From Candidatus Colwellbacteria bacterium (GTDB taxonomy: Bacteria > Patescibacteriota > Minisyncoccia > UBA6257 > Colwellbacteraceae), in the NCBI GenBank assembly GCA_027448785.1, contig DAIDMW010000001.1:1668-65667 (forward strand): a stretch of 64,000 bases of DNA. Direction: 5' to 3'. The notes beneath the pieces were generated by a model, which was not told where the DNA came from, made no database searches, and was given only the letters and a program-made list of their open reading frames with translations. Of this stretch, positions 2,049 through 46,463 are shown in pieces. Numbering within the stretch: position 1 is the stretch's first letter; each line of letters starts with the position of its first letter. Position numbers and translations under genes: made by a program.

Positions 2049-3596
2049 TTGGAGGCGATGCCCGAAACTCCTTCCAAAAACTCAATGCAGCGCCCGCCGA
2101 TCGTGGTGGTGATGGGACATGTCGATCACGGCAAGACCAGCCTTCTGGATTATATCCGCAAGGCCAATGTTGTGGCGCGCGAAGCAGGGGGGATAACCCA
2201 ATCCATCGGTGCTTATGAAATTGAGCACCCTTCGACAAGCTCAGGGCAAGCTCCTTCGACAAGCTCAGGGCAGGCTCCTTCGACAAGCTCAGGGCAAGCT
2301 CCTTCGACAAGCTCAGGGCAAGCTAGAAAAATCACTTTTATTGACACCCCCGGGCACGAGGCTTTTACGGCTATGCGCTCCAGGGGCGCGACGGTCGCTG
2401 ACATCGCCATCCTGGTCGTGGCCGCCGACGAAGGAGTGAAGCCCCAGACCTTGGAGGCGATTAACACTCTGAAAGAAGTTGGCACTCCTTATATAGTAGC
2501 CATCACCAAGATCGACCGGCCGAACGCGAATATCGAGAAGGTCAAGTCGGAACTTCTCTCCAACGGAGTTTTATTGGAAGGAATGGGAGGCGACGTCAGC
2601 TGGCAGGGCGTTTCCGCCGTTACCGGCGAGGGGGTGAATGAGCTTATAGATCTCATCTTGCTATTGGGCGATGTTTTAGACCTGCGGTACGATCCGGGAG
2701 CGACAGCCGAGGGCGTGATAATCGAAGCGACCAAGGACAGCCGCCGCGGAGTCGTGGCCAGCCTTATTTTGCGCGACGGAATCCTGCGCGAAGGCGAATA
2801 CATCACCACCGAGACCACCTACGGGAAGATAAAGCTGCTGGAGAACTTCAAAGGCGAAAGGGTCCAGGAGCTTTCTCCTTCCGCTCCGGCGCGGGTCGTG
2901 GGTTTCGAAGAGCTGCCGCTGGTCGGCGAGCGCTTCCAGGCCGGCGATATCAATTTGGCCGAGATCAAGCTGGCGGCCGCCGGTTCGGCTATCAAAGCCG
3001 CCGGGCTGTCGGAGGCTGAAGAAAGCAAGGAGGCGGTGAAGCTCATAACCAAAGCCGACACCGCTGGATCGCTTGAGGCTCTGAACCACGTCATTAAAGG
3101 AGTAGAAGGTGTGCGCGTCATTAGCAGCGCGGTCGGCGATATCACCGACGGCGATGTGGACCAGGCCATAAGCACGGGCAGCCTCATCGTTGGTTTCCGC
3201 GTCAAAGCTTCCGGTTCGACTTTGAACCGCGCGCAGATCAAGAACATTAAAATAATCAGTTCGGAGATAATCTATAAGATCGTCGAGGAGATAGAGGCGC
3301 ACTTGAAAGAGCTTCGCGGAGCTATGGTCGCCGGCGAGCTGGAGATTCTGAAGATATTCGAGACCGAGGGCAAGCGTGTGGTTTTGGGAGGACGAGTCGT
3401 AACCGGCTCAATTAAAGTCGGCATCGAAGTCAAGGTGGAGAGGCGCGGCAGCCAAATTTCCTCGGCGCGGATTATTAATTTGCAAGAAAATCGCAAGGAC
3501 GTGACGGAAGTCGCCGAGGGCAAAGAATGCGGTATGCTCGTCGAGTCCGAAGGTAAACTCCTGCCGGGAGACCGCCTGAAGATTTTTTCCGAATAA
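2049..3596 (+). CDS. infB: translation initiation factor IF-2 (core G2-C2 form, no N-terminal domains)
   Basis: G1 motif [22 protein letters not shown] and DTPGHEAF. Domain order matches IF-2, and it is followed by rbfA as in canonical operons. Confidence 0.9.
2229..2324 (+). repeat. perfect 4x24-bp tandem repeat (ccttcgacaagctcagggcaagct, one SNP) in-frame within infB, encoding (PSTSSGQA)x4
   Basis: Read directly from the sequence: four contiguous 24-nt units between the G2 region and DTPGH of IF-2. Confidence 0.9.
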
Positions 3597-3600
3597 CAAA

Positions 3601-3942
3601 ATGAAAGCGCATCGCGCCGAAAGGATAGCTAGCCTGATTCACGAGGAGTTGGGGAAATTCTTATTGCGCGAAGTGGAATTTCCCGAGGGCAGCCTGGTAA
3701 CCATCAGCCGAGTAGAGGTTGACCGAGAGTTAGCCACTGCCTCGGTCTGGGTCAGCGTCCTGCCGTCGTCGAGCAAGGGGGAGGTGATGAAGATTTTAAA
3801 GGACGAGCAAGGAAGGATGCAGTTCCTTTTGAACCGGAAGATGAATATCAAGCCGATGCCGCGCATCAATTTTTTGCTGGATGAGGGGCTGGAAAAAGCG
3901 GCGGCAATTGAAAAAATATTTATTGCTGGAGATAATCAGTAA
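3601..3942 (+). CDS. rbfA: ribosome-binding factor A
   Basis: ~113 aa, N-terminus RAERIASLIHEELGKFLL resembles RbfA, immediately downstream of infB. Confidence 0.7.
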   Translation: MKAHRAERIASLIHEELGKFLLREVEFPEGSLVTISRVEVDRELATASVWVSVLPSSSKGEVMKILKDEQGRMQFLLNRKMNIKPMPRINFLLDEGLEKAAAIEKIFIAGDNQ

Positions 3943-3948
3943 GGCGCT

Positions 3949-4020
3949 GGCCTGGTAGCCAAGTGGTAAGGCGAAGGTCTGCAAAACCTTTATACGCGGG
4001 TTCGATTCCCGCCCAGGCCT
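3949..4020 (+). tRNA. tRNA-Cys (anticodon GCA)
   Basis: Acceptor stem GGCCTGG/CCAGGCC. Anticodon stem AAGGT/ACCTT with loop CTGCAAA. T-arm GCGGG-TTCGATT-CCCGC. Discriminator T. Confidence 0.85.
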
Positions 4021-4022
4021 CA

Positions 4023-7792: not shown

Positions 7793-9025
7793 ATGGAACA
7801 CTGCGAACCTTTAGCAAAAGTATTGAACGTCAATCCCGACTTGATTTCCGCTCTTGATCGGGAAATGGAGAAAAGAACGGGAAAGAAGGGGATATTGGAC
7901 AAGGTTTATAATGATAATTGCGCCGAAATCGAAAAAACGTTAAAACTGCTGGATTCAAACGAGCGATCAGCCAATCATGTGCGAAGCGTTCTGCGTTCGG
8001 AGATTCTGACCAACGAAAAAGAGTTGTTAAAATACCTGGAAACGATCGAAGGGAAGGACGAGTTTGAAAAAGCGGTCAACCTTTCAAAAAAAGTGGCTCG
8101 AGTAGATAAAGGTTTCTTTTTGAAGAAAGATCGCGCCGAGGGAATTTTGCGGAAACGCCCGCCGGAACATCTATTGGAGTATTTAGGATTAAAAACCGTC
8201 GATGAAGTTTTGGCCAAGCATGACGTGGCCGAGGTTTTCAGCGCCCTGCGCTTCATCGAGAGCGAGGAGTGGATGCATGAAACGTTTGAGGTTGCGTACA
8301 GCGATTTTACTGCCGATGATTTTGAAGAACGCGAAATCGAGGTCCGCGTTCTGGGTCCGGCCTGGCACGAAATCGCCTTGAAGTTCGTAGCCAAGAAACA
8401 CCACAACGTCAGTCACCTCAAGGAGTTCGGGGTTATTTTCCTTAATCCGATCAAAGAAAACGTGCCTGGGAAATTCTTGCGCGACTTCTCTTTGTTCATG
8501 CACTATTACCACGAGATTGACTTCTACTCCAAGCTGTTCCGCCGTTACGCCAAGGAGGCGGACTTCGCCGAAAGGCTGAAGTCACTGCTGCGCGGAGACG
8601 TTCCCGAGATATACAAGGCCGAGGACGGAGAATGGCTTATCGTCCAGCGCTACCTTTCGAAAATAAATCCGCAGGACCCGCGCCTTTTTCTGCCGCGGGT
8701 CAATCCGGAATCGATGCACTGGGCTCGCGGAGAGCGGGACATCACGCAGTATTCCGAGCCAACCAAGATGTTCAATCTGCATCTCTGGCACAATTTGGAC
8801 TGGGTCGGGGGAGTTTTCGACGGAGGGAAGGACGAAGTAGTTAGCTTCGACTTGGAGGACAACGCTATGTCGCTGGTTTCCTTCATGGAAGGGAAGGACG
8901 AAGGATTCAATTACCACCAGCGCGAAGCGATGTGGACCAAGATTTTCGAAGAGTTCGTCGGTGGAGACAAAAAGATGGAGGAGATCCTCATCGAGAACTT
9001 CGACAAGGGAATCGTCAAATTCTAA
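7793..9025 (+). CDS. hypothetical protein (410 aa), no recognisable family
   Basis: Long clean ORF translationally coupled to the pfkB stop (TAACATG). Sits in a sugar-phosphate gene neighbourhood. Confidence 0.5.
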   Translation: MEHCEPLAKVLNVNPDLISALDREMEKRTGKKGILDKVYNDNCAEIEKTLKLLDSNERSANHVRSVLRSEILTNEKELLKYLETIEGKDEFEKAVNLSKKVARVDKGFFLKKDRAEGILRKRPPEHLLEYLGLKTVDEVLAKHDVAEVFSALRFIESEEWMHETFEVAYSDFTADDFEEREIEVRVLGPAWHEIALKFVAKKHHNVSHLKEFGVIFLNPIKENVPGKFLRDFSLFMHYYHEIDFYSKLFRRYAKEADFAERLKSLLRGDVPEIYKAEDGEWLIVQRYLSKINPQDPRLFLPRVNPESMHWARGERDITQYSEPTKMFNLHLWHNLDWVGGVFDGGKDEVVSFDLEDNAMSLVSFMEGKDEGFNYHQREAMWTKIFEEFVGGDKKMEEILIENFDKGIVKF

Positions 9026-15507: not shown

Positions 15508-15822
15508 TTACTTTTTGTTTGCTCCTTTTTGGGGCTCGTGCAAGCTGCCGCGCATCTTTTTATCCATGCGGTTTGCTTCCACCTTGGTGCGGCGGGCCTT
15601 CGCCTGCTCCGAGCGGGCCTCAGCCTCGCGGACGCGCGACTTAAACTTCTCGATCCGTCCGGCGGTGTCCATCAAGCGTTCCTTTCCGGTGTAGAAGGGG
15701 TGGCAGTGGTCGCAAATTTCGACCGTCATCCTTTCCTGGGTGGAGCCGGCCTTGAAGGTGTGACCGCAGGCGCAACTGACCGTCGCCTCCGGGTAGTATT
15801 TGGGGTGGATATCCTTTTTCAT
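15508..15822 (-). CDS. rpmE: 50S ribosomal protein L31 (Zn-ribbon type) with basic C-terminal extension
   Basis: [10 protein letters not shown] start, CxCG...CxxCHP zinc motif. 104 aa versus ~70 typical. Confidence 0.85.
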
Positions 15823-15854
15823 AACGGCCTAAGAATAGCATGCAAACTAAGGGA

Positions 15855-15883
15855 TTGACAAGTACGCCGCTTATCCTTACTAT
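15855..15883 (+). promoter_or_regulatory. sigma70-like promoter upstream of 16S (TTGACA-17 nt-TACTAT)
   Basis: ttgaca agtacgccgcttatcct tactat read directly, ~75 nt upstream of the 16S 5' end. Confidence 0.5.
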
Positions 15884-15959
15884 ATTTTAGGTCATAAGAC
15901 ATGACTGCTCTTTTGTAAGTTAATAGTAAATGTAGAAACTTTTTAGTTGTTCCAGTCTA

Positions 15960-17536
15960 TTTTTGAGGATTTGATCCTGGTCCAGGATGAACGCTGGCGG
16001 CGTGGATAAGGCATGCAAGTCGAGCGAACCAAATCTTGATGAGATTCGCGGAGTAGCAATACGAAGCGGAAGGAATCTTGGCGAGGTTAGCGGCGAACGA
16101 GTTAGTAATACCTTGGTACGTACCCCGAAGACGGGCATAGTTCGCCGAAAGGCGAAGTAATTCCCGATAGTCCCCGAGAGCAATCAACGGGTAAAGGCGC
16201 AAGCCGCTTTGGGATCGGCCTAGGTCCGATCAGCTAGTTGGTGAGGTAACGGCCCACCAAGGCTATGACCGGTAGGGAGGGTGAGAGCCTGATTCCCAAC
16301 GAGGGCACTGAGACACGGGCCCTACTCCTACGGGAGGCAGCAGTCGAGAATATTCGACAATGGGCGAAAGCCTGATCGAGCGACGCCGCGTGCAGGAAGA
16401 AGTCCTTCGGGATGTAAACTGCTTTTCTACGGGAGAAAGTTCCGGCGCAAGTCGGAATTGATAGTACCGTAGGAATAAGAGGTGGCTAACTTCGTGCCAG
16501 CAGCAGCGGTAATACGAAGGCCTCGAGCGTTATCCGGATTTACTGGGCGTAAAGGGTGCGTAGGGGGCTGGATGCGTCTCTCGTAAAATCTCACCGCTTA
16601 ACGGTGATATCGCGAGGGATACGATCCGGCTAGAAGGTGCGAGAGGTTTGCGGAACGCATGGTGTAGGGGTAATATCCGTTGATATCATGCGGAACACCG
16701 AAGGCGAAGGCAGCAAACTGGCGCATTCTTGACCCTGAGGCACGAAAGCGTGGGGAGCAAAAAGGATTAGATACCCTTGTAGTCCACGCCCTAAACGATG
16801 TTGATTAGCCGTTTTGAGTATCGACCCTCGGAGCGGCGTAGCTAACGCGTTAAATCAACCGCCTGGGAAGTACGAGCGCAAGCTTAAAACTCAAAGGAAT
16901 AGACGGGGACTCGCACAAGCGGAGGAGCATGAGGTTTAATTCGATGGTAAACGAGAAACCTTACCAGGGCTTGAAATGCTAGCGGAAATCCACCAGAAAT
17001 GGAGGATGTCTCTCAAGGACCGCTAGTCCAGGTGCTGCACGGTTGTCGTCAGCTCGTGTCATGAGATGTTCCCTTAAGTGGGGTAACGAGCGCAACCCTT
17101 GTCCCGTGTTACAAGTGTCACGGGAGACCGCCCCCACATTTGTTTTGGAGCCGAGTAATCGGTTCGAAGATAAATGTGGGGGAGGAAGGAGAGGATGACG
17201 TCAAATCAGCGTGGCCTTCTGATGCCCTGGGCGACACTCATGCTGCAATGGCCGGTACAAAGGGTTGCCAAGCCGCAAGGTGGAGCTAATCCCAAAAAGC
17301 CGGCCCCAGTTCGGATTGTGGGCTGCAACCCGCCCGCATGAAGTTGGATTCGCTAGTAATCGTGGATCAGCAGGCCACGGTGAATACGTTCTCGAGTCTT
17401 GTACTCACCGCCCGTCAAGTCAAGGGAGCCGGGAAAGCCTGAAGTGCGCTTCGCGCGTATCAGGGCTGGCTCGGTGACATGGGCTAAGTCGTAACAAGGC
17501 ACGTGTAGCGGAAGCTGTGCGTGGAACAATTAAACT
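15960..17536 (+). rRNA. rrs: 16S ribosomal RNA (divergent; no linked 23S/5S within 0.5 kb)
   Basis: 5' TTTGATCCTGG...GATGAACGCTGGCGGCGTG, 515 region GTGCCAGCAGCAGCGGTAATAC, GGATTAGATACCCTTGTAGTCC, GCATGGTTGTCGTCAGCTCGTG-like, and 3' AAGTCGTAACAAGG. The 3' boundary is uncertain because no GGATCACCTCCTT is present. Confidence 0.9.
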
Positions 17537-17680
17537 TTTAAGAATCGACCATTCCGTAGTTCGCCTTAGGCGAGCGAAGGATGGAAATGGTGTTGATCGA
17601 GGAGCCAATTGTCTCGATCGCCCAATCGTGCTTCGGCACGGTCGGGCTCTAGACTGGGACAACTAAAAGGCCTCTACAGA

Positions 17681-17932
17681 AGCGCAAAGCGAAAAACGCA
17701 AAACTCAAAATAATTGACGGTTAACAGACTGCCGTTGTTTTTCGCTTTTAGCTTTTAGTTTTGCGCTAAATTCGAAGCTCTAAATCCTAAATTCTAAATA
17801 AATCACAAATCCTAAATTCCAAACACAAACGGGTTTGTGATTTGATGTTTGGTATTTCGAATTTGTTTCAGATTTAGTATTTCAGATTTAGAATTTTCGT
17901 TATTTTTCGCTTTTAGCTTTTAGTTTTTAATT
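17681..17932. repeat. composite palindromic intergenic repeat element E7 (downstream of 16S)
   Basis: agaagcgcaaagcgaaaaacgcaaaac...ttttcgcttttagcttttagttttgcgc + AT-rich hairpin centred on caaacgggtttgtg + ttttcgcttttagcttttag. Confidence 0.8.
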
Positions 17933-18007
17933 TTATTGACCGTCCTGCATGTTGGGTATATTCTTTAGACATACCCGCAAGGGAGCGAATATCCATATTT
18001 ATAGAAA

Positions 18008-18403
18008 ATGCCCATTAAGAAGGTTTTGCTTGTGGAAGATGATCCATTCCTGTCTCAGCTCCTGGGAACTCGTTTGCAGCGAGCCGGTTTGGAGGTGGAT
18101 AAGGCTATGGACGGGGAGGAGGCGATGAACTACCTCAAGAACAACAAGCCCGACCTAGTTCTTTTGGACCTCATTCTTCCGAAGAAATCCGGCTTCCAGG
18201 TATTGGAAGAAATGCGCGCTGACCCCCTGGTGAAGGATGCGCCGGTGATCATTATTTCCAATCTTTCGCAGGATTCGGATGTCGCCAAAGGTAAGGAGCT
18301 GGGCGCCGTCGAGTATTACGTTAAAGCTCGAACCTCGATCGACGACTTGGTTTCGCGCATTGTTTCCCTGCTTTTGGACGGATTGAATAAAAGAGCCGTC
18401 TGA
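18008..18403 (+). CDS. single-domain response regulator (CheY-like receiver; PilH/PilG-like by context)
   Basis: VLLVEDDPFLSQLL...DLVLLDLILPKKSGF receiver motifs, 131 aa with no output domain. Sits at the head of the pilus locus. Confidence 0.75.
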   Translation: MPIKKVLLVEDDPFLSQLLGTRLQRAGLEVDKAMDGEEAMNYLKNNKPDLVLLDLILPKKSGFQVLEEMRADPLVKDAPVIIISNLSQDSDVAKGKELGAVEYYVKARTSIDDLVSRIVSLLLDGLNKRAV

Positions 18404-18474
18404 TTTACGATTAAAGCGTAAAAGGATCCGCCGGATCCGCAGTGTCGCTTACTTTAAAAAAAGAATAAAAAGAC

Positions 18475-19032
18475 GTGAGTAGAGGATTTACGTTGATCGA
18501 GTTGTTGATAGTTATCGCTATCATCGGGATTCTTTCCGCGGCTGTGCTCCTGACCATTAATCCGGGGCAGCTTTTGGCGCAAGCAAGAGACTCGCGCCGC
18601 GTTGACGATCTCGCCAACTTGAATTCGGCCGTCAAGCTGTACTTAGCCGATTTCGCCACCACGACCTGGTCGGCGGCTTACAATTGTACCTCCGGCACCA
18701 CCGCTCCCGGAACGTCGACCGTCGGCGGATGCGCACAGAACCAAACGAAGACGACGGCTGGCGCCGGCTGGGTGCCGATCAATTTCGGGTTAATGACGAT
18801 CAATTCTCCGATCTCCGCGCTGCCGATCGATCCCAGTAACGGCGTTTCTTCCTGCGGCGGAGGCGAGCCGCCGAACGTCTGTTTGTACGCTTACCACTCC
18901 TCTTCGACGATCGGCTTGTACAAGCTCTACGCCAAAATGGAAAGTTCGCGCTACCAGAACAACCAGTCGGTCGGTGACGGTGGATTATACAACGCCTGGT
19001 ACGAGGTTGGCTCTAACTTATCCACACTTTAA
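18475..19032 (+). CDS. type IV pilin (class III signal, MSRG|FTLIELLIVIAIIGIL)
   Basis: Prepilin leader ending in G followed by FTLIE and a hydrophobic helix. GTG start. Confidence 0.8.
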   Translation: MSRGFTLIELLIVIAIIGILSAAVLLTINPGQLLAQARDSRRVDDLANLNSAVKLYLADFATTTWSAAYNCTSGTTAPGTSTVGGCAQNQTKTTAGAGWVPINFGLMTINSPISALPIDPSNGVSSCGGGEPPNVCLYAYHSSSTIGLYKLYAKMESSRYQNNQSVGDGGLYNAWYEVGSNLSTL

Positions 19033-19111
19033 TCTTGGCATAATTATCGGTGTTGCGGTAAAATAACGACAACTCAAAGGACGAGAGTCAAAGGTCAAAA
19101 AATACTCAACA

Positions 19112-19663
19112 ATGCCAAGCAATAAAGGATTTACTTTAATCGAGCTTCTGATCGTCATCGCCATCATCGGAATCCTGGCCGCGGCTGTGGTGTTAGTTCT
19201 TAACCCGGGACAGATTTTCGCCCAGGCTCGGGACTCCCAGCGCATCCAGGATATGTCGACGCTGAATAGCGCCATCAGCCAATGGCTGGCCGACGTCTCG
19301 ACGACCACCTGGAGCGCAGTATGGAACTGCACTTCCGGCACGGTTGCTCCGGGAACCGGAACCTGCACGACGGTAACCTCGCGCGCGGTCGACGGTACCG
19401 GCTGGGTGCCGATCAACTTCAACGCGGTTTCCAGCGGTTCGCCGCTCTCGGTTTTGCCGATGGATCCGTCGAATGGCAGTACTTGCACCAGCGGGCAAAC
19501 CCCAAACATCTGCATGTACTCCTACCACTCCAGCTCAACCTTCGGCCAATATAAGCTTTATGCCAACCTGGAGAGCTCCAAGTACCAGACCACTTACGGA
19601 GCCAACGACGGCGGCACGCTTTCCGGCTGGTACGAGGTCGGAACCAACTTAAGCGGACTCTAA
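19112..19663 (+). CDS. type IV pilin, tandem paralog (MPSNKG|FTLIELLIVIAIIGIL)
   Basis: Same N-terminal signature and shared internal blocks (TTWSA..NCTSGT..GWVPINF..LP.DPSNG) with the upstream pilin. Confidence 0.8.
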   Translation: MPSNKGFTLIELLIVIAIIGILAAAVVLVLNPGQIFAQARDSQRIQDMSTLNSAISQWLADVSTTTWSAVWNCTSGTVAPGTGTCTTVTSRAVDGTGWVPINFNAVSSGSPLSVLPMDPSNGSTCTSGQTPNICMYSYHSSSTFGQYKLYANLESSKYQTTYGANDGGTLSGWYEVGTNLSGL

Positions 19664-24077: not shown

Positions 24078-24370
24078 AAGCGCAAAGCTAAAAGCTAAAA
24101 GCAGCGGCAAAGCGAGCGCAAAGCGAAAAACGCAAAGCGCAAAACACCGACCAGTAATTAACTAAATTCGAAGCACTAAATCCTAAACAAATTCCAAATT
24201 ACAAACTTTAAATTCCAAACCCGTTTGTGTTTGTGATTTCGGATTTGTTATTTCTGATTTGTTTCGGATTTAGGATTTCGTGCTTGGAATTTGAAAAAAA
24301 GCGCAAAGGCAAAAGAACGATTCCAACGAACTGCGTTATTGTTTTTCGCTTTTAGCTTTTAGTTTTGCAC
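24078..24370. repeat. composite palindromic intergenic repeat element E10
   Basis: aaaagcgcaaagctaaaagctaaaagc...gcgcaaagcgaaaaacgcaaagcgcaaaac + AT-rich hairpin (caaacccgtttgtg centre) + ttttcgcttttagcttttagttttgcac. Confidence 0.8.
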
Positions 24371-31399: not shown

Positions 31400-31786
31400 A
31401 TGCCGGCGATGGAGAAAGAGGCGCAGCGCTTGCTGAAGAAGGCTCTTAAACTATTGGGTCGCGAGCGGTCGGCAGCCGACATTTTTTTTATAGGCGACGC
31501 AGCTATGCGTCGCCTTAATCGCGTTTACCGCGGGAAGGACAAGACAACTAACGTCTTGTCCTTTTCCGCCCCAAAAAACTTCCCGCGGCCCGACCTAAAA
31601 ACGGGAACCACTTACCTGGGAGAGATCTACCTTAATATGGTATACATTAAAAAAGAAGGGGGTGATTGGCGAGCAATGCTGATTCACGGTTTGCTGCACC
31701 TTCTGGGCTTTGATCATGAAAAAATAAGTGATAAAATCAGAATGCAAAAACTTGAAAAATCTATCGCTTCAAGTTTGGAATTTTAA
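31400..31786 (+). CDS. ybeY: rRNA maturation endoribonuclease YbeY
   Basis: HGLLHLLGFDHE zinc-binding H3 motif. Confidence 0.8.
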   Translation: MPAMEKEAQRLLKKALKLLGRERSAADIFFIGDAAMRRLNRVYRGKDKTTNVLSFSAPKNFPRPDLKTGTTYLGEIYLNMVYIKKEGGDWRAMLIHGLLHLLGFDHEKISDKIRMQKLEKSIASSLEF

Positions 31787-35464: not shown

Positions 35465-35550
35465 TTAAAAGCGAAAGATAGCGACAAGGCGGGTGCAAAA
35501 CTAAAAGCTAAAAGCGAAAAACAATAACGCGGCTCTTTTGCATTTTGTGC
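35465..35550. repeat. intergenic repeat element E13
   Basis: aaaagcgaaagatagcg...gcaaaactaaaagctaaaagcgaaaaac...ttttgcattttgtgc. Confidence 0.65.
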
Positions 35551-43917: not shown

Positions 43918-44478
43918 ATGACTGAATCTACTTTGAAACCGGAAAAAACCGGAACGAGGAGTTGGTATGCTGTGCACACCTATTCTGGCTACGAAGACGC
44001 CGTCGCCCGGTATTTGAAGCAGCGTGTTGAGTCTCTTTCGATGGGCGACAAGATCTTCAACATTGTGGTCCCGATCGAGAAGAAGATAAAGATTAAAGGA
44101 GGCAAGCGCTACGTCGTCGAGGAGAAGATTTACCCGAGCTATGTCCTGGTGGAGATGATGATGGAACCTGATTCGTGGTACGTCGTCCGCAACACGCCGC
44201 GGGTTACCGGTTTCGTCGGACCAGATCCGGCCAATCCCACCCCCCTTTCCTACGAAGAGGTGGAATCGATCAAAGCCCGTATGGGCGAGGCCGAGCCGAA
44301 GATGAAAATTGATTTGCGCCCGGGAGATGTGGTAAAAATCACCGACGGCCCGTTCAAGGATTACGACGGCAAGATCTCGGAGGTTGACGAGGAGAAGGGC
44401 CGCATCAAGGTGATGGTCCCGGTCTTCGGTCGCGACACCGCCGTGGAGCTGGATTCGCTCCAGGTTAAAAAGATTTAA
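43918..44478 (+). CDS. nusG: transcription termination/antitermination factor NusG
   Basis: WYAVHTYSGYEDAV NGN domain and C-terminal KOW (GDVVKITDGPFKDYDGKI). Confidence 0.85.
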   Translation: MTESTLKPEKTGTRSWYAVHTYSGYEDAVARYLKQRVESLSMGDKIFNIVVPIEKKIKIKGGKRYVVEEKIYPSYVLVEMMMEPDSWYVVRNTPRVTGFVGPDPANPTPLSYEEVESIKARMGEAEPKMKIDLRPGDVVKITDGPFKDYDGKISEVDEEKGRIKVMVPVFGRDTAVELDSLQVKKI

Positions 44479-44484
44479 AATAAT

Positions 44485-44913
44485 ATGGCTAACAAACCGA
44501 TAAAAACGATAATCAAACTACAGCTCGAGGCCGGAAAAGCCAATCCAGCGCCTCCGGTCGGAACCGCGCTCGGTCCCCAGGGTATAAATATCCAGGACTT
44601 CTGCAAGCAGTTCAACGACGCGACCAAGGATATGGGAACGGACATCGTACCCGCCGAGATCACGATTTATGAGGACCGCAGCTTCGATTTTAAACTGAAG
44701 ACTCCTCCAGCTTCCGACCTGCTGCGCAAAGCGGCTGGCGTCGCCAAGGGGTCGGCGGTGCCCAACAAAAACAAGATAGGCCGGATTACTCCGGAAGACA
44801 TCCGGAAAATCGCCGAGCGCAAGATGGTTGACCTGAACGCCGAGGATATCGAGGCGGCGGAAAAGATCGTCGCTGGAACCGCCCGCTCGATGGGCATCGA
44901 GATTACCAAATAA
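44485..44913 (+). CDS. rplK: 50S ribosomal protein L11
   Basis: [26 protein letters not shown] is a highly conserved L11 N-terminus. Confidence 0.9.
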
Positions 44914-44930
44914 GCCTTGATAAGGAGGAT

Positions 44931-44960
44931 AAAAAAGAGCGCTCAGGCGCTCTTTTTTTG
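44931..44960 (+). terminator. rho-independent terminator after rplK
   Basis: aaaaaagagcgc-tcag-gcgctctttttttg. Confidence 0.7.
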
Positions 44961-45029
44961 TGTATGACCGTTACGGATAGTGCTAGCTGGCGCAGCTGGC
45001 TTTAATTCGCTAAAATACAAGGCGTATCA

Positions 45030-46463
45030 ATGCTTAAGCCAACTATCGGACTGGAAATACACGCGGAGCTGCGCACGAAGACAAAAATGTTTTGCGGCTG
45101 TCCGAACGATCCCGAGGAGCGTCACCCGAACGTCAATACCTGCCCGGTCTGTCTGGCTCACCCTGGAGTCTTGCCGACCGCTAACGCCGAGGCGATCAAG
45201 GCGGTTTTGAAGCTGGGTTTGGCCGTCGGCGGAGAGCTGCCGACCCGCGCCAAATTCGACCGCAAGAGCTACTTCTACCCCGACCTACCTAAGGGTTATC
45301 AAATCAGTCAGTACGACGAGCCTTTGGTATTGGGCGGCGAGTTGGCTGGTATAAAAATCAGGCGCGTCCACCTGGAGGAGGATACGGCTAGGCTTTCTCA
45401 CGCCGCGGACGGATCGGGCTCGCTCATCGATTTTAATCGTGCCGGCGTTCCTTTGATGGAACTTGTCACCGAGCCGGTAATCCACTCGGCCGAGGCTGCG
45501 CTTAATTTCGCCAGAGAATTACAGCTTCTGCTGCGCTATCTGGGGATCTCCAACGCCGAGATGGAGAACGGAGAGATGCGCATCGAGGCGAACATCTCCA
45601 TGGCTGAAGAGGGCGCCAGCTCTTTCGGAACCAAAGTCGAAGTAAAAAATATCAATTCGTTCAAGGCGGTGGAGGGAGCGGTCGCTTACGAACTAGAGAG
45701 GCAGGCTAAGGCGATCTCCGCGGGAGAAAGAATCGTCCAGGAAACGAGAGGGTGGGATACTGTTGGCAACCGGACCGTCAGTCAGCGCGTCAAAGAAGAA
45801 GCGCACGACTACCGCTATATGCCAGAGCCCGATATTCCGCCTCTGGACTTTGGCGCACCTAACGCGATCGACCTAACTATACTTAAAACCCTTATACCCG
45901 AACTGCCATGGGACAAAAGAAAAAGGTTTATCAACGAGTACAAGTTGGAGCCGGAACAGTCGGAGTTTCTCGCCGCCGATCCTGCTACCGCCGATTTCTT
46001 CGAGGAAGCCGTCTCGGAGTTCGCCGCCGATGGCGCTTCCGGAACGAAAACGCTCTTCAACTATCTTTCCTCTGATCTGCAAGGCCTTTTAAACGACGCC
46101 AACCTCCGCATCGGTGATAAAGATTTTAAAATAACGCCGGAAAAATTTGCCGATCTGGTAAGTCTGGTTGTGAAGCAGGAGATAACCAGCCGTTTGGCGA
46201 AAAACGTTTTATCAGAGATGTTTAAGACGGGCTTGGATGCGCACCAGATTATTTCTCAGATGGGGTTGGAGGAGTTCGGCGGGGGTGATCGTCTGCAGGA
46301 AATAGTCCGCGCGGCGGTGGCGAATAATTCGAAAGCCGTCGATGATTTCAAAAAAGGCAAAGAGAACGCCTTGCAGTTCCTGACTGGCCGGGTGATGGCC
46401 GCGACCAAAGGCAGCGCCAAACCGGAGGAGGTGCGAGCTGCGCTGTTAAAAGAATTGAAATAA
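45030..46463 (+). CDS. gatB: aspartyl/glutamyl-tRNA amidotransferase subunit B
   Basis: GLEIHAELRTKTKMFCGCPN N-terminus and C-terminal GatB/YqeY domain. Confidence 0.85.
   Translation: MLKPTIGLEIHAELRTKTKMFCGCPNDPEERHPNVNTCPVCLAHPGVLPTANAEAIKAVLKLGLAVGGELPTRAKFDRKSYFYPDLPKGYQISQYDEPLVLGGELAGIKIRRVHLEEDTARLSHAADGSGSLIDFNRAGVPLMELVTEPVIHSAEAALNFARELQLLLRYLGISNAEMENGEMRIEANISMAEEGASSFGTKVEVKNINSFKAVEGAVAYELERQAKAISAGERIVQETRGWDTVGNRTVSQRVKEEAHDYRYMPEPDIPPLDFGAPNAIDLTILKTLIPELPWDKRKRFINEYKLEPEQSEFLAADPATADFFEEAVSEFAADGASGTKTLFNYLSSDLQGLLNDANLRIGDKDFKITPEKFADLVSLVVKQEITSRLAKNVLSEMFKTGLDAHQIISQMGLEEFGGGDRLQEIVRAAVANNSKAVDDFKKGKENALQFLTGRVMAATKGSAKPEEVRAALLKELK

Follow-up and report, generated by a model that had tools for sequence, protein, structure and literature searches.

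How does a ribosome choose its start codons when its 16S ribosomal RNA (rRNA) is without an anti-Shine–Dalgarno (anti-SD) sequence? The question is raised by the 16S rRNA gene (rrs) in a 64-kb stretch of contig DAIDMW010000001.1 from a Candidatus Colwellbacteria bacterium. The whole stretch of 64,000 nucleotides is referred to here as the window, and positions are counted from its first letter. In this gene, CCUCC is replaced by an A/U-rich tail (GGAACAAUUAAAC). We regard it as very probably a genuine, single-unit 16S rRNA gene of the Parcubacteria/Paceibacteria lineage, in an uncultured organism that selects start codons independently of Shine–Dalgarno (SD) motifs. The anti-SD is absent, neither an SD nor an alternative SD signal was found at the gene starts, and the starts lie in A/U-rich contexts with little structure. 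Loss of the anti-SD is what a large Parcubacteria/Paceibacteria clade normally shows, and the feature is already known as a kind, as it has been briefly reported in the literature (PMC9297842).

The 16S rRNA gene and its 3′ tail

The gene and the parts of it that matter here are as follows.

15959..17536, + strand: full-length, intron-free 16S (small subunit, SSU) rRNA gene (Rfam RF00177)
17500..17523, + strand: intact helix 45 with a GGAA loop, CACGUGUAGC-GGAA-GCUGUGCGUG, with no non-canonical pairs (covariance-model alignment)
17524..17536, + strand: 3′ tail of 13 nt, GAACAAUUAAACU, replacing the bacterial GAUCACCUCCUUU; the anti-SD core CCUCC is absent (covariance alignment)

The SSU_rRNA_bacteria covariance model (RF00177) matches positions 15959-17536 (+) from model position 1 to 1533 without truncation, with a score of 1381.6 bits against a gathering score of 50. 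Helix 45 folds as a 10-bp hairpin in which every pair is standard, and its GGAA loop is the site that carries dimethyl-adenosine in Escherichia coli. At the 3′ end, the covariance alignment sets the final 13 positions of the model, GAUcACCUCCUUu, against the tail GAACAAUUAAACU without gaps and at the top posterior probability. The two are identical at 5 of the 13 positions (G, A, C, A and U, the equivalents of E. coli G1530, A1531, C1533, A1534 and U1537), and in the tail each of the four C's of CCUCC is replaced by A or U. The window 16S therefore does not carry the canonical bacterial tail GAUCACCUCCUU with its anti-SD CCUCC.

On the + strand of the window, CACCTCC occurs at positions 107 and 33710 only. 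There is no CTCC in 17537-17700, and the nearest downstream CCTCC, at 18689, is within an open reading frame (ORF) for a pilin-like protein. The initial annotation, which had reported a 16S tail without CCUCC after a recognisable helix 45 and no CACCTCC in the 500 nt after the gene, was right on both counts, and its coordinates and sequences are correct. The alignment to the Rfam SSU model that it proposed gave a full-length match with no intron and no canonical tail further downstream.

Apart from the 16S, the only RNA gene in the window is a transfer RNA (tRNA) gene, tRNA-Cys, at 3949-4021, and there is one rrs copy. Because no 23S, 5S or spacer tRNA follows it, the 16S is a stand-alone unit, and it is unlinked from such genes across the 64-kb window. 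The 16S includes lineage-specific expansions at 16030-16090, 16494-16512 and ~17125-17180. Near the 5′ end there is an insert of 56 nt where the model has 18 nt, and an extended hairpin was seen by eye at ~17125-17180. The site for the 515F primer, GTGCCAGCAGCAGCGGTAA, has one mismatch to the universal primer.

The tail was also found outside the window. An ENA contig (L203) from an independent assembly of the same organism, identified by an identical release factor 1 (RF1) protein, includes a complete 16S that ends in GGAACAATTAAACTTTTAAGAATCGACCA. Several contigs of the window organism stop inside the 16S. A scan for helix 45 plus the tail recovered the exact tail on 79 metagenome contigs, mostly from groundwater. 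The full-length 16S matches of these contigs are only 77-85 % identical to the window 16S, and the exact 12-mer of the tail thus persists on 16S genes that have diverged to this extent. In 82 related loci, the 320 nt that follow the gene never contain CACCTCC.

Distribution and conservation of the replacement tail

GTDB species representatives were scanned using the helix 45 sequence as the sole anchor, with the tail left free, which recovered at least 120 loci, nearly all from Patescibacteria. The counts and identities in this and the following paragraph are those among the matches listed. CCUCC is present in 51 of 120 tails, 50 of which are GGAUCACCUCCU, and absent from 69, with a partial CUCC kept in four of the 69. 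Where the 5′ strand of helix 45 is of the CACG type, CCUCC is absent in 63 of 64 loci, whereas it is kept in 50 of the 56 loci with other helix 45 types. The window 16S shares the CACG signature. This contingency table was used in place of a neighbour-joining tree of the 16S 3′ domain, which had been built for counting losses and was set aside (43 loci passed the anchors, and long branches misplaced taxa).

By their record titles, the loci without CCUCC belong to Paceibacteria, Taylor-, Nomura-, Zambryski-, Jorgensen-, Ryan- and Nealsonbacteria and Minisyncoccia, and those with the canonical tail to Magasanik-, Uhr-, Falkow-, Moran- and Kerfeldbacteria. The 16S closest to that of the window is L018, with 89.4 % identity over 912 nt and the same tail. 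The next matches (L077, L097, L009 and L078) share about 80-83 %, and partial matches include Jorgensenbacteria, Ryanbacteria and Minisyncoccia loci. Sampled complete genomes of relatives gave one 16S hit each. An uncultured Minisyncoccia metagenome-assembled genome (MAG) in the sample has the tail GGAUUAAUUAAAU; the cultured Minisyncoccus archaeiphilus is also one of the Minisyncoccia. Together, the 16S matches and the CACG signature place the window organism, in all likelihood, within the Parcubacteria/Paceibacteria. Loss of the anti-SD has been inherited across a deep clade.

The initial annotation called SD-independent initiation rare outside organelles and a few lineages. This calls for a qualification, as in a large subgroup of the Parcubacteria loss of the anti-SD is the rule. 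The anti-SD motif was found in only 48 % of Parcubacteria, its absence overlaps with the group that lacks uL1, and bS21 is often missing (Tsurumaki et al. 2022, RNA 28:1041; PMC9297842). As in that subgroup, CCUCCU is absent from the 3′ end of the window 16S, and the relatives of the window 16S are Paceibacteria/Parcubacteria MAGs. Nothing contradicts membership of the window organism, and the coverage in that paper consists of the detection rate and two sentences. Full-text literature searches found no other paper on anti-SD loss in Parcubacteria. Era, which binds GAUCACCUCC, has reportedly been lost in most members of the candidate phyla radiation (CPR) (PMC10582724), and none of the window ORFs scanned against Pfam is an Era.

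The tails without CCUCC are not random. The 69 tails, which were chosen on helix 45 alone from among the matches listed, have the consensus GGAWYAWUUMAA. They hold 0.7-1.7 bits of information per position to about position 12-14 after helix 45 and ~0.1-0.2 bits thereafter. Hardly any variation occurs at the positions equivalent to A1531, A1534 and U1537. Because conservation collapses after position 12-14, the mature tail is probably of roughly canonical length and under some constraint.

Intermediate or independent anti-SD decays were seen in other Patescibacteria (L019, L035, L083, L119, L056, L079 and L082). Examples are GGAACAACUCCUUU and GGAUCAUCUCCUUU, with one C gone, GGAUUUUCUCCU, and GGAUCACUACAUU from a complete Nealsonbacteria genome. 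These suggest repeated erosion under weak SD use.

Gene starts and the initiation of translation

Gene starts were taken as the first ATG of long, non-overlapping ORFs, and 50 kb of E. coli K-12 served to validate the pipeline. The frequency of GGAG/GAGG upstream of the starts was compared with that in control windows of the same size, and the energy of the duplex with the 16S tail was scored (z) against shuffled upstream sequences.

E. coli, 43 genes: GGAG/GAGG at −18..−4 in 49 %, control windows 0-5 %; tail duplex energy z=−4.5
Window, 46 genes: GGAG/GAGG at −18..−4 in 15 %, control windows 9-20 %; own-tail duplex z=−0.5
Loci with the same tail, 284 genes: GGAG/GAGG at −18..−4 in 6 %, control windows 6-10 %; own-tail duplex z=−0.8
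CPR loci with the canonical tail, 190 genes: GGAG/GAGG in 9 % (219 genes, first pass), controls 5 %; duplex z=−3.3

At the starts of the window and of the same-tail loci, SD motifs are not enriched over the control windows. In canonical-tail CPR, SD complementarity is weak yet detectable. Dependence on the SD was probably already low when the anti-SD was lost. The start regions contain 40-49 % A and 11-16 % G at −11..−1. The mean minimum free energy (MFE) of 40-nt segments is −3.0 kcal/mol around the start and −4.6/−4.7 kcal/mol at the flanks, making the start the least structured part of the profile. Two SD-like strings, AAGGAG before the ATG at 698 and GGAGG before the infB ATG at 2058, were considered as SDs and rejected, as they occur at the chance rate. 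The latter is also too close to act as an SD, being 2 nt from the ATG.

With CCUCC replaced by an A/U-rich tail, the SD:anti-SD helix cannot form, and the genes are without SD motifs. Since neither SD motifs nor sequences complementary to the tail are enriched, and the starts are A/U-rich, G-poor and weakly structured, initiation is most likely SD-independent. The proposal in the initial annotation that an rRNA without an anti-SD implies SD-independent initiation is thus supported, as GGAG/GAGG does not rise above the control windows. Start sites would then be chosen as the 30S subunit loads where the sequence surrounding the start codon is rich in A/U, poor in G and weakly structured, and the AUG would be fixed by the initiator tRNA together with the initiation factors. 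bS1 may assist, by analogy with other SD-poor bacteria. The loss itself probably came about through relaxed selection. In sister CPR groups with a CCUCC tail, SD pairing is already in weak use.

Several points weigh against this account. The conservation of the replacement tail, at 0.7-1.7 bits per position, is not explained by pure relaxed selection. The count of one rrs copy covers the 64-kb window, and the mature 3′ end of the 16S is a predicted one. The starts were called crudely, which could blur weak signals, although the E. coli control works. Two window genes do have SD-like strings, albeit at the chance rate noted above.

Similar situations are known elsewhere. Anti-SD-less Flavobacteriia (Chryseobacterium, Elizabethkingia, Riemerella and Blattabacterium; Lim 2012; PMC6107228; PMC10783764) also combine loss of CCUCC with absence of the SD. 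In them, as in SD-scarce organisms, there is no complementary variant SD and the starts are A-rich and unstructured. However, they belong to an unrelated phylum in which the loss was independent, and the replacement in Paceibacteria spans a much deeper clade. Most species of Bacteroidia keep the anti-SD but sequester it via bS21, bS18 and bS6 (PMC7797042). The window has three features of SD-scarce category iv (PMC10783764), namely no CCUCC in an unstructured tail, a variant typical of the lineage, and no enrichment of SD or tail-complementary sequences. Genome-reduced symbionts and Mollicutes (Carsonella, Hodgkinia and some Mycoplasma) are likewise organisms with small genomes whose translation apparatus is simplified and whose 16S tail is degenerate. 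In Hodgkinia, though, the tails vary even among rrs copies, resembling neutral decay, whereas the window-type tail is conserved. Mitochondrial SSU rRNAs also lack an anti-SD and initiate independently of the SD, and the pattern of ribosomal proteins lost is similar to that in CPR (PMC9297842). Mitochondrial messenger RNAs (mRNAs) are largely leaderless and use specialised factors; in contrast, the window has polycistronic operons and bacterial IF2, RbfA and YbeY.

Flanking sequences, alternative explanations and neighbouring genes

The following features flank the 16S rRNA gene.

15855..15883, + strand: putative promoter of the stand-alone 16S unit, TTGACA, 17 nt, TACTAT (pattern match in a consensus scan, 10 of 12 positions)
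15939..15959, + strand: 5′ leader strand of the pre-16S processing stem, CUUUUUAGUUGUUCCAGUCUA, pairing with 17650-17670 (cofold and duplexfold)
17549..17584, + strand: trailer hairpin 1 (cofold), varying in sequence and length across related loci
17589..17621, + strand: conserved trailer hairpin comprising GGUGUU, an 8-bp stem formed by 17595-17602 and 17612-17619, and an AGCC..G loop
17621..17646, + strand: trailer hairpin 3, CCCAAUCGUGC-UUCG-GCACGGUCGGG (MFE and centroid folds)
17650..17670, + strand: 3′ trailer strand of the processing stem, UAGACUGGGACAACUAAAAGG, pairing with 15939-15959
17680..17754, + strand: inverted repeat AAGCGCAAAGCGAAAAAC / GUUUUUCGCUUUUAGCUU (18 nt, 89 % complementary), then a T-rich run

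The processing stem, of 21 bp, encloses the 16S and a structured trailer of 113 nt, with no CUCC between the tail and the stem. Most of the related loci in which both flanks are present show the pairing YUUUUUAGUUGUYCCA / UGGGRCAACUAAAA as well. A pairing of the leader sequence GTTGTTCC (15947-15954) with GGAACAA of the tail was rejected, as the cofold pairs the leader with GGGACAAC of the trailer, at 17650-17670. The inverted repeat at 17680..17754 may possibly be the terminator of the 16S unit, a low-confidence assignment, and a simple terminator scan did not call it. Between the 16S unit and the response regulator gene, 17763-17910 contains an AT-rich imperfect palindrome and three short direct repeats, AAATCCTAAATTCTAAA.

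An alignment of the conserved trailer hairpin that includes 28 distinct sequences has 98.2 % of cells paired, with both sides changed in 6 of the 8 pairs; slid controls gave 28-45 %. With a covariance model of this hairpin, the window and 59 fetched loci (60 sources) each gave a single copy; those copies whose spacing from the 16S tail was measured lie 32-188 nt 3′ of it. Most matches are in the clade with AAUUAAA-type tails, and loci with other types of anti-SD-less tail do not have the hairpin. It has no counterpart in Rfam. At permissive E-values, Rfam searches of 17250-18000 returned spurious plant-miRNA matches on the AT-rich palindrome only, and none for the trailer. Canonical tails pair with their own trailers (CCUCC..GGGAG), at −6.96 versus −4.89 kcal/mol for shuffled sequences (p=2e-12). 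The possibility that this tail-trailer hairpin has been kept with a new sequence was rejected, as the non-canonical tails gave −1.83 versus −1.70 kcal/mol for shuffled sequences, which is not significant.

Several other explanations were weighed. One that we consider unlikely, while giving it some weight, is that the tail is a selected element with a new job on the 30S platform, within a coordinated remodelling of translation in the Paceibacteria clade. Candidate jobs would be the binding of a factor or protein, an assembly checkpoint, or a non-Watson–Crick contact with mRNA. The trailer hairpin, an RF1 without domain 1 and the apparent loss of uL1 would be other parts of the remodelling.

It is improbable that initiation is mainly leaderless, with mRNAs that begin at the AUG, 70S or 30S particles that bind the 5′ end and an anti-SD that is dispensable. 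For some archaea without an anti-SD it is the explanation usually given (PMC10783764), and the A/T-rich upstream sequences could hide −10 boxes. However, same-strand starts within operons abut or overlap the preceding stop (e.g. at 7793, 20476, 23589, 25092, 31790, 33018 and 44485), and the composition profile has no TANNNT-like positional signal at −13..−8. Because many genes abut or overlap the preceding gene, leaderless initiation is not the general mechanism.

We also think it quite improbable that the mature SSU rRNA is extended at the 3′ end, keeping the trailer hairpin so that the 13-nt tail is a linker to an extra helix used in initiation. A covarying hairpin does lie between the tail and the processing stem, in a single copy in each of the 60 sources, and there is no gap between the stem and the 5′ end, but 113 nt separate it from the 3′ tail. 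Yet the measured distances between tail and hairpin (32-188 nt), with unrelated inserts, are typical of spacers and not of mature rRNA. Conservation also collapses after about position 14, and the hairpin is missing where the anti-SD-less tail is of another type.

A co-evolved alternative SD, in which the tail (3′-UCAAAUUAACAAG-5′) pairs with an upstream A/U-rich UUUAAUUG or with UUAAUU, is very improbable. The replacement tail has been kept throughout a deep clade, and the upstream regions are A/U-rich, with TTAA/AATT-type strings visible by eye. However, at no upstream position are k-mers from the tail's reverse complement commoner than composition-matched control k-mers, and the own-tail duplex energies equal those of shuffled upstreams (the z values of −0.8 for the 284 genes and −0.5 for the window, against −4.5 in E. 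coli). The mean duplex energy, about −1.5 to −2 kcal/mol, is too weak for anchoring an mRNA, and no matching variant SD was found in 128 anti-SD-less organisms (Amin et al. 2018; PMC6107228). An alternative SD complementary to the new tail was therefore rejected on both k-mer counts and duplex energies.

Finally, the chance that the tail is an artefact of a chimeric assembly, of a truncated or pseudogenised gene or of an intron that places a true CCUCC tail further downstream is negligible: rRNA genes are frequent break or chimera points in metagenome assemblies, some contigs of the window organism end within the 16S and relatives carry 16S insertions, but the covariance match spans the whole gene untruncated and shows no insertion close to the 3′ end, the tail and the start of the trailer are repeated in the independent assembly L203, the exact tail is in 79 further contigs and in GTDB representatives, and the flanking order L31 - RF1 - 16S - response regulator is conserved. 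As the conserved leader/trailer precursor stem encloses the gene and 0 of 82 loci have CACCTCC in the 320 nt downstream, an intron with a hidden canonical tail is excluded. SD-independent initiation on unstructured, A/U-rich starts would be the most likely mechanism, judged from these sequence comparisons.

The gene adjoining the 16S, at 15395-14673 (−), encodes an RF1-type class-I release factor of 240 aa with PET and GGQ motifs. It aligns to residues 110-342 of E. coli RF1 and 86-319 of Thermotoga maritima RF1. As the alignment starts at residue 110 of the E. coli protein, this short RF1 is without the N-terminal domain 1. The ~240-aa form is encoded in ten related loci, including the complete genomes L009 and L079, and a literature search found no paper on a domain-1-less RF1. 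The order L31 - short RF1 - 16S - single-domain response regulator - pilin/type IV pilus genes (15508-19663) is shared by dozens of loci (L121-L199). The response regulator, a stand-alone receiver domain (18008-18403), follows the 16S in dozens of related contigs, and an exact-protein look-up found no match on record for it.

Genes for other components of translation are found elsewhere in the window. At 43918-46463 (+), SecE, NusG and L11 are followed by GatB, with no L1, L10 or L7/L12 after L11. L11 is also followed by GatB and not by rplA in two other assemblies (L201 and L202), and rplA could lie elsewhere in the genome. The L11-GatB order fits the uL1-lacking Parcubacteria subgroup, though gene order does not prove a genome-wide absence. 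Genes for translation and 30S maturation at 2058-3942 and 31400-31786 (+) encode an IF2 that is short, at 512 aa, and has no long N-terminal region, as well as RbfA and YbeY, the endonuclease of the 16S 3′ end. A dispersed intergenic repeat, TTCGCTTTTAGCTTTTAG, made up of heptad-like GCTTTTA units, has 17 matches at up to 3 mismatches, where 0.12 were expected. Its sites include 17741-17758, 17906-17923, 24345-24362 and 35501-35518, and are often inverted pairs flanking genes. It may be a terminator-like element or one resembling repetitive extragenic palindromic (REP) sequences.

The consensus of the conserved tail, the negative test for an alternative SD, the loss of the tail-trailer hairpin and the trailer hairpin are additions to the earlier literature. 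What appears to be new about the system itself is the conserved replacement tail, the trailer hairpin and the RF1 without domain 1.

A very large and environmentally abundant bacterial radiation translates without the textbook SD:anti-SD rule, and the window is a well-controlled example. In these genomes, starts will be called wrongly by gene finders that rely on SD motif scores, and 16S annotation pipelines anchored on CCUCC will mis-trim these genes. In the heterologous expression of Paceibacteria genes and in orthogonal-ribosome designs, use of the SD should not be assumed. The conserved tail, together with cultured Minisyncoccia relatives, provides an experimental route to the function of a 16S tail without an anti-SD.

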